Source of the DNA: a virus
Lineage: Duplodnaviria > Heunggongvirae > Uroviricota > Caudoviricetes
Reading direction: 5' to 3' (one strand)
Length of the DNA stretch: 64,000 nucleotides
IMG/VR virus record: IMGVR_UViG_3300025122_000007
Span: 37,620 to 101,619 of that record
How positions within the stretch are numbered: the first letter of the stretch is position 1; every line of letters starts with the position of its first letter. Positions 59,316-64,000 of this stretch are shown here, piece by piece. The notes beneath the pieces are model-generated. The model did no database searches. It saw nothing but the letters and a program-made list of their open reading frames with translations, and was not told the DNA's origin. Position numbers and translations under genes: made by a program.

Positions 59316-62300
59316 TGATCAAGGACTTCCTATCAAGGGCTAGCTTCTTCGATATCGAGACTACCGGTCTCGATCCCAGAAAATCCAGCACTTCGATTTG
59401 GGAAGGGGCCATCTATCATGAGGGCCGCAACACGGTTTGGAAGAGAGCCAAGCCCATCTCCCCCAATACAGGTCGGGTCATTCCGATCTCTCAGATGTCC
59501 CCGTGGACTCAAGCCTCTCTCAGTCAAGGAAGCACACCTATCACAGATGAGATCCTGAGCAAGGGTCTCAACCGCAAGCCTTTCATCAGCCGTATGCTCG
59601 GAGAGATGAAGGGAAGGGACGTGTGGGTCCAGAACCTGCCGTTCGAATCACGCCATTTGGCCGCCAACATGAGCGACCGCACCTACACAGACTTCATCAA
59701 GTCAGCCAGACTTCAGACCTTCTCTGTAAACAAGGACCCCATTACAGGCAAGCTCGCCTCAAGGCGTCTGTTCACCACCTCACCCATCGTAGAGCAGGCC
59801 GTGTCAAAGGCATGGGGAGCTGCGCCTGGCGACAGCTCGATGAAAGCATGGGGCGGTGTATGGGGTGCTATCAAGAAGGAGCTCACCCAAGGGGTTCCTG
59901 ATGATGTGACACGTATCTTCGACATCCAGGACGTATCCAGATCCTTGTTCGCAAAGGCTCAGATGGAAGGCTACATGAGACGTAGCGGTGACATCTTCAC
60001 GGGCACCTCGGTGGAGACCTACTCCCAGTTGATGGAAGGTATGGCCGAGTCACACAGGGCCCCTGTCGATATCAAGGCACAGTCTCGAATGCTCAAGTCC
60101 TATATGGGCATGCTCGAGAAGATGGATTCGGGTACTGGTCTCTCCATCAAGGAGAAGGACTATCTCATGTCCGTCTCTCTGCTCCAGCCCAAGTTGAAGA
60201 GACAGAATGCCGCGAAGACCCTCTCTTCCGCCTATGCTCAGATCATGGACTTCAGAAGCAACCAGGGTCCTGGATATCCTGTGGCGATCGGAAGACGGAT
60301 CAAGGACATCGAAGCAGGACACTACACCGGAAAGACGATCTCAAAGACCATTCCGGAGATGACGTACAAGCATCTGACGGACATGGAAGATGTAGTCGCA
60401 CAGCTGACAAGGTCTCAGGACAGGAACGTTCGGATCGGCCGGATGCACAGAGCGCAGAAGGTCGACTATCAATCTATGTGGGGCTCGATGAGAGGTGCTC
60501 TCAGAGGAAAGGAGAACTGGCAAGGTGCTCTGCATGAGTGGGAGAAGGGTTACAAGGTCAGTGATGAGGTCTATGGCTCATTGAGATCTGGAAAGGGTCT
60601 TCCTGGCGCAAGGGCTGGCAATGTCGGAGACAAGGCGTTCTCCTGGGCGAAGAAGAACTGGAAGGCTATTGCAGTGGGAGGAGCGGGAATCCTTGCGTTG
60701 CATGCTCTGACCGGCGGGCCCAACAACGATCCTCTATACGGTGTTGATGTAGACGATCCCTATCCGGGAGACACCACGTCTCCTCCGTCTTTCAGTCCAA
60801 GCGGAAAGTTCGGCGGAGTCATTCACAGGAAGACTGATTCAAGCATGGCCATGTATGTTCCCGATTCCAAGGATACGATTCAGATCGAGGATGCTGACAC
60901 CGCCATCCTCCACCTTGCAAAGGGAGGCACGCATGCCATTCGTATGGCTGGTATCGATGCTCCTGAGGTAGGCCACAAAGATGAGTATGCTGAGGGCAGA
61001 GTCCTTCAAGAGCAGCCGTATGGACAGGAGGCTACAGAGACTCTGAACCGACTTATGGGAGAGATGGACAGCGTAGGTGTACTGTTTGACGAAGCCGGCC
61101 GTACATCCTATGGCCGTACAGTCGGTGTCCTCATGGGAGAGAGAGACGGACAGCAGTTCAATCTGAATGAGATGCTTGTCAAGGCGGGTTCGGCAAAGTT
61201 CCTGCCATTCGGAAAGAGACGTGACTCCATCATCGACAGAGGCGCATTCCAAAGAGCGGAGAATGAGGCCTACGCAGCACACAGAGGCATGTGGGACGAA
61301 GAGGGGTGGAGAAGGGTAAGACAGGCAGAGGGTGACAAGGACACTGTCACAAACGTTTCGTTCACCAACATGGAAAGAATGAGCAACGACTTCAGGATCG
61401 CAGCACTTCTTCGTAGACAAAGAGACATGACCGTATCCTACAACCTCGCCGCTGGTGGCAAGGACGACCACAACGTCATCGAGGGTCTGCCCCATGGTTG
61501 GTTCGGCAGCAAGCGTAAGTACAACACCGACTTCGGCTCTGGTTACCAGGGAGAGAGCTTCGGTGTCGGAGACGCCATCTTCATGGCAGGCTCCGCGCTT
61601 ACAGGATTCGACAGGTTTGGAGGCAAGGGTGGAGCCATCGGTGCTGCGATCGGACTTGGCTGGACAGCTCTTACAAAGGGAACGTCTTCAGTACTGGGAG
61701 ACAGCACTGCGGGAGACGCCTGGAGGTTCTTGAGTGGTGGTATCACAGCTTCGGCAGCAACCTCCATGTTTGCATCATCCATGATGAAGGGTGGTCTTTT
61801 GGAGCCTGTTGGAAAGGAGATGTCTAAGGGCTTCTCGAGCTTGGTTGGAGGAACGACAAAGAAGTTCCTTGGGACCAGCTCTGGAGAGGCTTACCTGAAG
61901 AGTAGAGGTATGGCGAGAGAGCCTGCAGAGAAAGAGCTCCTGTCCTTCCTTGAGAGAACAAAGGATGACCCTCGTGGCTTCTTTGCTGTAATTCAAGAGG
62001 GTGGTGAGACATTGTCAGAGCTGGGTGGCTTCATGAGGAAGTCCGACTCAATTGGAACTAAGGGAGTCGGTGGCCTCCTCGGGTCACTTACAAATCCCTA
62101 TGTCCAAGGTTTCCTTGGCTCTCCGAAGCTGGCAGGTGCGATCAAGCATCACGGTACCAGAAAGGGTTTGACTGAGCACTTCGAAAAGGAGATGCCGTGG
62201 TTGGGTGTGACCAAGAACGATATTGAATACATAGCAGGAGAGGGTTTCTCCAAGCCAAGGTATATGGAGACTCTTAGGATGAGAGGCTTCAGGGACAAGA

Positions 62301-64000
62301 TCCATGAGCAGGCCTCTGTAGGTACGAGGAATGAGGTATTCACGAAGGTTAGAAAAGAGGTGTCCAAGGGGTATTCTTATGAGTACGGAGGCAAGACGTC
62401 TCACTTATTAAAGTCGAACGACGGCTTTGTTTCGGGCATGGGTCTTACCCATCGTGGACGAGCTGTCGCTGACAAAAAGATCGCTCCGTATGAACATGGT
62501 AAATGGGTTTCGGAAGGCAAGCCAGGTAAGTCCAAGCATTTCAGCCCGCATGAGATAGATCGGTTCCTAAAGTATGACAAGAACATTCTTGAACATGCAC
62601 AGACAAGAGCCTCAATAAGAAAGGAAGTGGGAGAGGACACCTGGAAAAAGTGGACAGAGGGTCCTCTGGATGAGTATGGCAGCAATCCATTTACAGGTAT
62701 GCTTGGACTCGCGGAGGGACTGACCAAGCAAAAGGAGGCTCTTGGTTGGAAATCATTGAATGTAAAGGACCTTGTCGAGAGCTCTTTTACGAAGAGCACG
62801 TATGCAGACAGTTATAGGTATATTCCATCCAATCATGCTAGAGGACTTAGGGAAGCAGGGCTGAAAGACGCTATGTATGCGAAGGCTAATAGAATCTCCA
62901 TGGAGGAAGGAGGGATTGGAGCCATCCGTAAGGAGATGAAGGGTAAGTTCGCAGCCAGCGAAGGTGAGATGAGCACTCACTTCCTTGATGCAAGTGCAGG
63001 TCTGAAAGACATCCCAGCAGAAGAATATTTCAAGGCGAATGCTCTTGACCTTTATTACGGAGCGGCTGGTGGTCTTATGTTGGGTGGTGCTGTCGGCGCT
63101 CTAAATATGGGTTACGATGCGCTCTTCGGAAGAAGCACCTTCTCTGGGCACGATGACAACTACAACACAATCGAGGGCCTCTCTCACAAGGGAATGGCAG
63201 GAGCATCACGTAGGCGCAATACTGGCTTCGGATCTGGCTGGAAGGGAATCTTTGGAGGCTATAAGAAGTTCATGGCTGCCAGCAGGGAGGAGATCGGCTC
63301 TGCACTTAGAGGGTGGGCTGGTAAGAGATCTGTGGTCCAGAAGGGTCTCCTCGGTCAGCCTGCTGCATTGCAAATGGCGTTGACCAGTGAAGGATTGTCC
63401 GGCGCTATTTTTCAAGATCCCCATGCGATAAGTTTTTTTTCTCGTCATCTTAAAGTTAATCCAAAAATTCTTGAGGAAGTTACTGTAGCACATGAGGTAT
63501 CAGAGCTTTACCATGGTTTACGGATTGGAGAGAAGACTCTTGCTGGCATGGGGTCTCCAAAGAGATCTATTATAGACAGACTTTTTGGAAGGAATAAGAC
63601 TCATTCAGAAGAGGCTATTAAGAGTGCTCTTAATTCATCTTTACAACCTACATTTGGCTCTCACTTTAGTCCCTCTGTTATCGCTGATGAATTAATTTAT
63701 GGCGCAAAGATGGGTCCAGAGCATTATGATGTTGTAAAACGAATGCGTATGTGGGAGATTGCCAATCAGCCTGACAAGGCATACGCAACAAGAACTCGAA
63801 AGATAATCGCTGCATTTGAAAAGAACCAACTGCCAAAGTTCTCTGGATTCGATGATGCCTATAACACCATTCGGGGCCTTCCTCATAATGGAAAGGCAGG
63901 GGCATCACGTCGACGTAACACACACTTTGGATCTGGATATAAGGGAGATGAAGGGCTTACTGTCGGAGGTATTCTTTCTGGCGCAAACAAGCTCTTTATG
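59316..64000 (+). CDS. giant multidomain protein (>1560 aa, continues past the window end): N-terminal DEDD-type 3'-5' exonuclease motif, central SNase/thermonuclease-like domain, three copies of a Gly-rich module
   Basis: My hand translation in the frame of the ATG at 59316 found no stop through 64000. N-terminus MIKDFLSRASFFDIETTGLDP (Exo I motif). SNase-like block IRMAGIDAPEVGH...YGRTVGV...GMWDE at about 60930-61300. Repeated module YNTIEGLSHKGMAGASRRRNTGFGSGWKG / HNVIEGLPHGWFGSKRKYNTDFGSGYQG / YNTIRGLPHNGKAGASRRRNTHFGSGYKG. Confidence 0.6.

Follow-up and report, generated by a model that had tools for sequence, protein, structure and literature searches.

At its right-hand end, a 64,000-nucleotide stretch of viral DNA (Duplodnaviria; Heunggongvirae; Uroviricota; Caudoviricetes; positions 37,620 to 101,619 of the IMG/VR record IMGVR_UViG_3300025122_000007; the whole stretch is called the window below) enters a giant plus-strand gene that it does not contain in full, and the locus raises the question of how so large a phage protein is built and what it might do during infection. 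We found that the complete product, P0001, is one polypeptide built as a chain of cassettes, and that a module of 37 amino acids (aa) recurring between these cassettes defines, as judged from its profile matches, a large and undescribed family of giant phage proteins that comprises at least 561 protein clusters.

Reading frame and domain order of the giant protein

The first start codon of the giant gene is an ATG at 59315 (+), which overlaps the stop of the upstream gene as TAATG; the preceding stop lies at 59309-59311, the frame is open from 59312, and from 59315 it runs without a stop through 64000 (1,562 codons). The initial annotation of this locus, made from the letters alone, had described an uninterrupted frame from 59316 to the window end and a protein of more than 1,560 aa. 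The run and the size hold, and the start is one base off: translation begun at 59316 meets many stops. About 1.57 kb of the gene extends past the window end, and following the open reading frame (ORF) there, as had been proposed, yields the complete 2,085-aa protein with a fourth copy of the repeat. P0001 is encoded with 100% identity by two independently assembled contigs, one from ENA (120,395 bp) and one from Logan, and an IMG/VR contig carries a near-identical copy of 2,083 aa, so a frameshift or assembly artefact is unlikely, and the missed stop or frameshift that had been named as a possible refutation did not appear. In order, P0001 consists of a DEDDh exonuclease, an anchor helix, a staphylococcal nuclease (SNase) domain, two glycine-zipper-like cassettes, one helical and one possibly ADP-ribosyltransferase-like cassette, a transmembrane (TM) helix and a basic tail, placed as follows.

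59315 to 64000, plus strand: 5′ 75% of the giant gene (aa 1-1562 of 2,085; the gene has 6,258 nt), from the open frame, the ATG and the identical full-length P0001
59315 to 60259, plus strand: core of a DEDDh (DnaQ/RNase T-like) 3′-5′ exonuclease, aa 1-315, with Exo I D13/E15, Exo II N107..E111 and Exo III H247-x4-D252
60260 to 60664, plus strand: family-specific extension of the exonuclease, aa 316-450, a long beta-hairpin and helices, confident in the AlphaFold2 (AF2) model
60659 to 60721, plus strand: Gly/Ala-rich hydrophobic helix, aa 449-469, WKAIAVGGAGILALHALTGG, from a hydropathy scan
60860 to 61309, plus strand: SNase/thermonuclease domain, aa 516-665, from Pfam PF00565, PDB 1syb and residue mapping
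61451 to 61555, plus strand: module 1, aa 713-747, from the module profile (independent E value, i-E, 2.8e-19) and alignment
61556 to 63142, plus strand: cassette B, glycine-zipper-like, 'D-type', aa 748-850 and 1175-1276, split by an insert, from iterative profile searches
63143 to 63250, plus strand: module 2, aa 1277-1312, module profile i-E 8.4e-19
63251 to 63841, plus strand: cassette C, aa 1313-1509, helical, with an invariant H-E-x-x-E ... H ... E ... R
63842 to 63949, plus strand: module 3, aa 1510-1545, module profile i-E 1.8e-18
63950 to 64000, plus strand: start of cassette D, glycine-zipper-like, aa 1546-1752
past the window end, plus strand: module 4, aa 1753-1788, the fourth copy in P0001, then cassette E, the TM helix and the basic tail

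The N-terminal domain has an RNase H-like exonuclease fold and is a divergent DEDDh branch that is recognised via fold and motifs. Its motif readout (Exo I DxE, Exo II NxxFE, Exo III H-x4-D) is that of DEDDh enzymes, with a Glu (E111) replacing the usual Asp in Exo II; in an alignment of 20 homologues D13, E15, N107, H247 and D252 are invariant and E111 is kept in at least 90%. The curated RNase_T model (PF00929) gave no significant match to P0001, which showed sub-threshold matches to RNase_H_2 (E 0.062) and phrog_192 (E 0.028); another branch of the family carries a canonical PF00929 exonuclease in the same N-terminal slot (E 4.5e-25). The FFDIETTGLDP motif from which a DnaQ-like DEDD exonuclease had been proposed is present at aa 11-21, and the proposal is upheld by the fold, the motif conservation and the homology to the canonical RNase_T family member. 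Judged by its residues, the exonuclease of P0001 is apparently active.

When the N-terminal model was compared with viral models by Foldseek, it matched the uncharacterised 529-aa protein ME3_11 ('hypothetical protein') of the cultured Acinetobacter jumbo phage vB_AbaM_ME3 (E 1e-13, TMq 0.62), and hhalign aligned the two with their catalytic motifs in register (probability 98%, E 1.2e-13). ME3_11 is homologous to the N-terminal 450 aa over its whole architecture: DxE, NxxFE and H-x4-D align, a Gly/Ala-rich hydrophobic segment follows, and the gene occupies the same place upstream of the terminase. Unlike the giant protein it stands alone, without SNase, modules or further cassettes, and a Gly-rich membrane protein is encoded by a separate gene, ME3_12. 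Among phage records, the only homologue of ME3_11 outside ME3 was in one partial Acinetobacter phage record. The equivalent hydrophobic segment after the Exo domain is also seen in the homologues of P0001, in which the helix at aa 449-469 is probably a membrane anchor.

Further along the chain, aa 542-661 (nt 60938-61297) match PF00565 with an E value of 4.9e-15 and 56.3 bits against a gathering cutoff of 21, and staphylococcal nuclease itself (PDB 1syb) aligns with the domain. Taking the S. aureus nuclease as reference (D21, D40, T41 as backbone ligand, R35, E43 and R87), we find the catalytic and Ca2+-ligand residues present as D528, R543, D548, E551, Y599 and R601, with A549 at the backbone-ligand position; R543, D548, E551 and R601, the positions inside the alignment, are invariant in five close homologues. 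In the NCBIfam search the nearest families were the secreted Ca2+-dependent thermonucleases NucI and EcnA. An SNase domain had been placed at about 60930-61300 by the initial annotation, and the segments on which that call was made (IRMAGIDAPEVGH, YGRTVGVLMGERDG and HRGMWDE) all fall inside the Pfam match, with the active-site residues intact. On this sequence evidence the domain is apparently an active, Ca2+-type enzyme.

Beyond these two nucleases the searches were sparse. Pfam on the whole protein returned SNase alone and on separate segments nothing further, NCBIfam gave no family beyond SNase, PHROG 8809 (a 2,317-position family of unknown function) overlaps the giant protein in the SNase region only, and a tblastn comparison with 50,697 phage records was negative at a threshold of 1e-5. 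At their C-termini (aa 2027-2085 in P0001), proteins of the family have a basic tail with a recurring G-G-[KR]-[GKR]-H-like motif, which in P0001 reads HANMDPKRH; there the tail comes after the TM helix (hydrophobic helix aa 2027-2045). The tail could be a packaging or DNA-binding signal.

The 37-aa module and the cassettes it separates

The initial annotation had noted three copies of a Gly-rich repeat of about 30 aa. All three copies are where it had put them, and the Gly-rich character belongs elsewhere, as the Gly-rich stretches are the separate cassettes B and D. The repeat itself is a sharply bounded 37-aa module, [FI]SGxDDxYNTIEGLxHxGxAxxxRKxxTDFGSG[WY]xG, and the four P0001 copies together with copies from six homologues give the consensus xGxxDxYNxIEGLxHxGxAGxxRxxxTDFGSGYQG. 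A six-frame profile scan found no module elsewhere in the 64-kb window or in 26 kb of flank; given this and i-E values of 1e-18 to 1e-19 per copy, the repetition is far beyond chance. We also considered recent DNA duplication or gene conversion as the source of the copies and ruled it out, since the copies are just 70-74% identical in DNA (module 2 versus module 3, 74%).

Run against 1.84 billion representative proteins, the module profile matched 561 proteins (cluster representatives) at E<=1e-3, of which 341 score 1e-10 or better and 89 score 1e-30 or better. The module-bearing proteins are roughly 400-2,450 aa long with up to 7 copies, and the 153 that were analysed carry 1-7. Over 435 copies, conservation begins abruptly at [FI]-S-G and stops at F-G-S-G-[WY]-x-G, with N, G, H, G, R, T and FGS as the strongest positions. 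Around a quarter of the copies come after a hydrophobic segment, and nowhere in the family does a module come closer to the C-terminus than 41 residues. When module 2, cassette C and module 3 were modelled together with AF2, the cassette core was confident and the modules had a pLDDT of about 35-58 with a short helix at most, which suggests that the module acts as a conserved flexible linear element and not as a folded domain. The module thus has what is expected of conserved sites between the functional units of a polyprotein: it lies between cassettes, is never terminal and is predicted to be flexible. The module and most cassettes are not represented by a model in Pfam, PHROGs or NCBIfam, and we found no description of the module or the family in the open-access papers covered.

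Cutting the 153 family proteins at their modules gave 589 segments, which group into 142 similarity communities. Among the largest communities are kinase-like cassettes (ABC1/Pkinase/APH/Bud32-like), which are mostly C-terminal, two N-terminal exonuclease types, SNase, several HExxH types, an 'xRGT' and an 'xHGT' type, and many without any match. An HExxH or C-type (peptidase-like) cassette is present in 73 of the 153 members. Close relatives have the head of exonuclease, anchor, SNase and module in common and differ in their later cassettes, indicating that cassettes are exchanged behind a common head.

Within P0001, modules border every cassette from the SNase onward. Cassette B is interrupted by an insert of about 325-380 aa that is found in this phage only, and cassette D is one of 26 members of a Gly-rich family in which the pattern G-x3-G-x3-G is invariant. 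Neither cassette matched Pfam or PDB, so that we do not assign them to known glycine-zipper families and state the G-x3-G pattern alone. The family of cassette C has 29 members, in which H-E-x-x-E, H, E and R are invariant, a signature that resembles a metal site; the predicted fold of cassette C matched generic helical bundles only and nothing protease-like. In cassette E, past the window, the region around FxHGT has a weak local match to the NAD-binding lobe of Tpt1 (E 0.42), and we keep as a lead that this cassette is possibly ADP-ribosyltransferase/Tpt1-like. Along the giant gene the GC content at third codon positions (GC3) drops from 0.62 to 0.43, with a broad change-point centred at about nt 62441 (twice the log-likelihood difference, 2dLL, 77 versus a permutation maximum of 13.8). 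A recombination breakpoint at a module boundary was ruled out as its cause, as the peak is broad and lies inside cassette B.

A conserved place in the packaging block

The window belongs to a large tailed phage. Its minus-strand genes reach to about 56.3 kb, and from about 56.4 kb a plus-strand block begins with five small genes; the giant gene comes next, and downstream follow, in order, a 294-aa protein, an HNH endonuclease, the large terminase (TerL; PHROG 2, 3e-25), several small genes, a 493-aa protein, the portal (PHROG 9232, 4.5e-48) and endonuclease VII. This agrees with the late or structural context that had been read from the strand switch. The terminase is about 30-33% identical to those of the jumbo myophages MTATph1, 0305phi8-36 and ME3. 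We read the giant gene as one of the late genes of this uncultivated phage, a distant relative of the ME3/0305phi8-36 jumbo myophages. In L013, L021, L031 and other relatives the terminase ORFs have 1,076-1,420 aa and match ME3 TerL in several blocks that lie apart, as would be expected if inteins or other insertions interrupted the gene.

A profile that combines SNase and module 1 recovered 187 confirmed IMG/VR loci on contigs of up to 204 kb, 80 of which were used for neighbourhood counts. Matches of this profile in bacterial genomes were considered as prophages and set aside as evidence, nearly all being generic SNase domains. A module-bearing ORF is present in 71 of the 80 loci, with the terminase downstream in 76, the gene up269 directly upstream in 62, dn160 in 53 and the portal in 38, and the recurrent order is up269, giant gene, (glycine-zipper protein), (HNH), TerL, dn160, dn493, portal. 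In about 75 loci the giant gene shares strand and block with TerL and portal, as expected of a late or virion gene. The upstream neighbour lies in the window as follows.

58506 to 59315, plus strand: up269, 269 aa with four invariant Cys, its stop overlapping the start of the giant gene

No family in PHROGs or among PDB profiles matched up269, which is homologous to ME3_9 and to gp112 of 0305phi8-36 and could act as a small terminase or in assembly; the ME3 record annotates ME3_9 as 'RNA (guanine-N1-)-methyltransferase'. The downstream 294-aa gene (16436-17320 of locus L001, past the window) weakly matches glycine-zipper families (PF13488, PF13441) and a 'tail associated lysin' PHROG, and its product may be a functional partner of the glycine-zipper cassettes. 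In one relative the protein at this position is homologous to the ME3_12 membrane protein.

The jumbo myophages ME3 and 0305phi8-36 share synteny with this block. ME3 encodes ME3_9, a head completion protein, ME3_11, the Gly-rich membrane protein, the terminase and, further on, the dn493 homologue, the portal and then capsid and sheath. In 0305phi8-36 the slot between gp112 and the terminase is filled by gp113, gp114 and gp116, which according to the record annotation are virion proteins by mass spectrometry. In related phages the portal gene is followed by one for a prohead protease/scaffold.

Possible roles of the giant protein

A late gene in the packaging block, two nucleases, hydrophobic and glycine-zipper parts, variable cassettes and a flexible joint together best fit the class of large multi-enzyme phage proteins for which packaging in the head and injection with the DNA have been proposed. 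We therefore favour, tentatively, reading the giant protein as a virion-packaged, injected 'polyvalent' effector, and hold back from firmer confidence because its virion location is deduced from position only. The initial annotation had offered an injected virion protein that attacks host nucleic acids as one of two possibilities, and it is the better supported one, on synteny and analogy. The giant protein would be produced late, along with packaging and head proteins, then be loaded into the capsid and expelled with the DNA at infection, whereupon its hydrophobic and glycine-zipper parts would engage the host envelope and its nucleases (in relatives also kinases, HExxH peptidase-like and other cassettes) would have nucleic acids and proteins of the host as their targets. 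For the modules two roles are compatible with the data: they could be sites for cutting the cassettes apart, or repeated docking peptides by which the chain is tied to a partner in the capsid, portal or scaffold. Over evolution they would have acted as joints for cassette exchange. What the module does, the engagement of the membrane, and packaging and injection are thus what we infer from architecture and position. With more doubt, we consider it possible that the module is a dedicated inter-cassette element (processing site or capsid/portal docking peptide) of a widespread plug-and-play effector delivery in uncultivated big phages, in which one late gene would supply interchangeable enzymes (nucleases, kinases, ART-like and peptidase-like cassettes) that are packaged and injected and then separated or positioned via modules.

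The nearest concept is that of the polyvalent proteins, for which packaging and injection were proposed from context (Iyer, Burroughs, Anand, de Souza and Aravind 2017, J Bacteriol; PMC5512222). Like these, the giant protein unites several unrelated catalytic domains in one late-gene polypeptide with rapid domain turnover between relatives, and at least two disparate catalytic domains are found (DEDDh and SNase here, kinase-like and HExxH cassettes in relatives). It differs in its conserved 37-aa module between cassettes, which has no counterpart there, and the families catalogued for polyvalent proteins (LPD domains, MuF, ArdC-N, DarB-type methylase/helicase and others) are not among its domains, as Pfam finds SNase alone. 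The text of PMC5512222 does not mention SNase, a DnaQ-type exonuclease, transmembrane or glycine-rich segments, or a repeated spacer, and uses 'exonuclease' once in passing; a jumbo-phage survey of the same group leaves SNase/thermonuclease unmentioned and treats polyvalent proteins in passing only. The concept of a giant multi-effector phage protein is therefore known, and the module-delimited architecture and the family are not described in the open-access papers covered or in Pfam, PHROGs or NCBIfam.

Two further groups of proteins offer analogies. T7 gp14-16, the P22 E-proteins, T4 Alt and IPs, P1 DarB and the N4 vRNAP are late proteins that reside in the head until they are expelled into the host; among them are very large ones, enzymes and membrane-inserting proteins, and several are proteolytically processed. 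(PMC8954989 and PMC5512222 also deal with such proteins.) We found no sequence or fold relationship between these ejected or packaged effectors of T7, P22, T4, P1 and N4 and the giant protein, and they are without a repeated conserved spacer and without the DEDDh and SNase pair; virion location is demonstrated for them and deduced here. In MARTX and polymorphic toxins, variable effector cassettes are marked off by conserved short elements for processing and recombination. These toxins, which are discussed in PMC5512222, are bacterial and secreted, have dedicated secretion and processing domains (e.g. CPD) and share no homology with the giant protein, whose module is longer than their elements and occurs up to seven times per protein.

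Several points weigh against packaging and injection. The full architecture was found in no cultured phage, either by tblastn against the 50,697 phage records or in the search for ME3_11 homologues. The proteins gp113-116 of 0305phi8-36 are not homologous to the giant protein, so that the virion argument is positional only, and Pfam did not detect the signature domains of polyvalent proteins in P0001. A DNA-degrading enzyme beside packaged DNA would need an inhibition mechanism that is unexplained. SNase-type enzymes are typically extracytoplasmic, and a periplasmic membrane-anchored enzyme of the infected cell fits this equally well. Self-processing by a cis peptidase is not supported, given that peptidase-like cassettes occur in 73 of the 153 members and that cassette C has no protease-like fold.

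The extracytoplasmic habit of SNases leads to a different picture, in which the protein would be a late membrane-anchored enzyme complex of the infected cell and not a virion component, with the helices at aa 449-469 and 2027-2045 putting the SNase middle outside the cytoplasm. The SNase might then break down the DNA of competing phages as it enters (superinfection exclusion) or, at lysis, DNA outside the cell, and the exonuclease would be cytoplasmic, serving for example host DNA breakdown for nucleotide salvage. Two hydrophobic helices do flank the region from SNase to cassette E, and the SNase is nearest to the secreted NucI and EcnA. We nevertheless consider such a complex unlikely, as the kinase-like (ATP) and possibly NAD-using cassettes that relatives carry in the same inter-module positions are hard to square with a periplasm, the giant protein has no signal peptide or lipobox, and the strictly kept position in the terminase/portal block (about 75 contigs, and ME3) is more typical of virion or assembly genes.

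That same position might point to a packaging or genome-maturation accessory whose exonuclease and SNase trim or process DNA ends or destroy unpackaged or host DNA, the other cassettes being later add-ons. In ME3 as well as across the clade the exonuclease gene immediately precedes TerL, and an HNH nuclease also adjoins TerL. This is improbable in our view: the hydrophobic anchor, the glycine-zipper, kinase, HExxH and other cassettes and the repeated module would be left unexplained, cassette content is free to vary between relatives, unlike that of a core packaging factor, and no terminase system is known to need a DEDDh or SNase partner. Least probable by far is a tail, tape-measure or fibre-associated structural protein carrying nuclease domains, the second possibility of the initial annotation. 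The large size, the Gly-rich hydrophobic stretches like those of some tape-measure proteins, and the weak 'tail associated lysin' and glycine-zipper matches of the adjoining 294-aa gene would suit it, but the gene lies in the head/packaging block upstream of terminase and portal and away from the tail genes, the sheath gene of the syntenic ME3 follows only after another 17 kb or so, no tail, tape-measure, fibre or baseplate family matched, and AF2 models show globular enzyme and helical domains on flexible linkers with no extended coiled coil.

If the giant protein is packaged and injected, it would represent a natural and highly modular way for a phage particle to deliver several enzymes to a bacterium, in which a simple and recognisable joint separates the payloads. 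The polyvalent-protein concept would be extended to unannotated environmental phages (at least 561 protein clusters, 187 IMG/VR loci), dozens of unknown cassettes would gain context as candidate host-takeover or anti-defence effectors, and the module would be a defined peptide element on which proteolytic processing or capsid targeting can be tested and which could help load cargo into phage capsids. However the protein works, the module profile is of practical use for annotating giant genes that Pfam, PHROGs and NCBIfam leave almost blank.

The remainder of the window yielded some further observations. Thirty tRNA genes on the minus strand (1227-27104) cover most amino acids, and the one at 6035-6108 ('Pyl' per ARAGORN) has the anticodon CTA and would read UAG. 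Amber recoding by this tRNA is not supported: stop-codon statistics were uninformative, and TAG ends many long frames. The minus strand also encodes, at 2232-4631 and 29192-32513, an ATP-dependent DNA ligase, an AAA-type ATPase family, an NAD synthetase-like protein, a metallophosphoesterase and a lipoprotein-like protein. GC content is 0.43-0.47 at 1-34 kb, 0.51-0.60 in an island at 34-62 kb and 0.46-0.49 in the downstream structural genes. Within this GC-rich island, a plus-strand ORF of 1,345 aa (35188-39225) lies antisense to minus-strand ORFs of 942 aa (35104-37932) and 387 aa (38044-39207); because the 387-aa ORF has a DprA-like match and the surrounding called genes are on the minus strand, the 1,345-aa ORF may be a GC-driven shadow.

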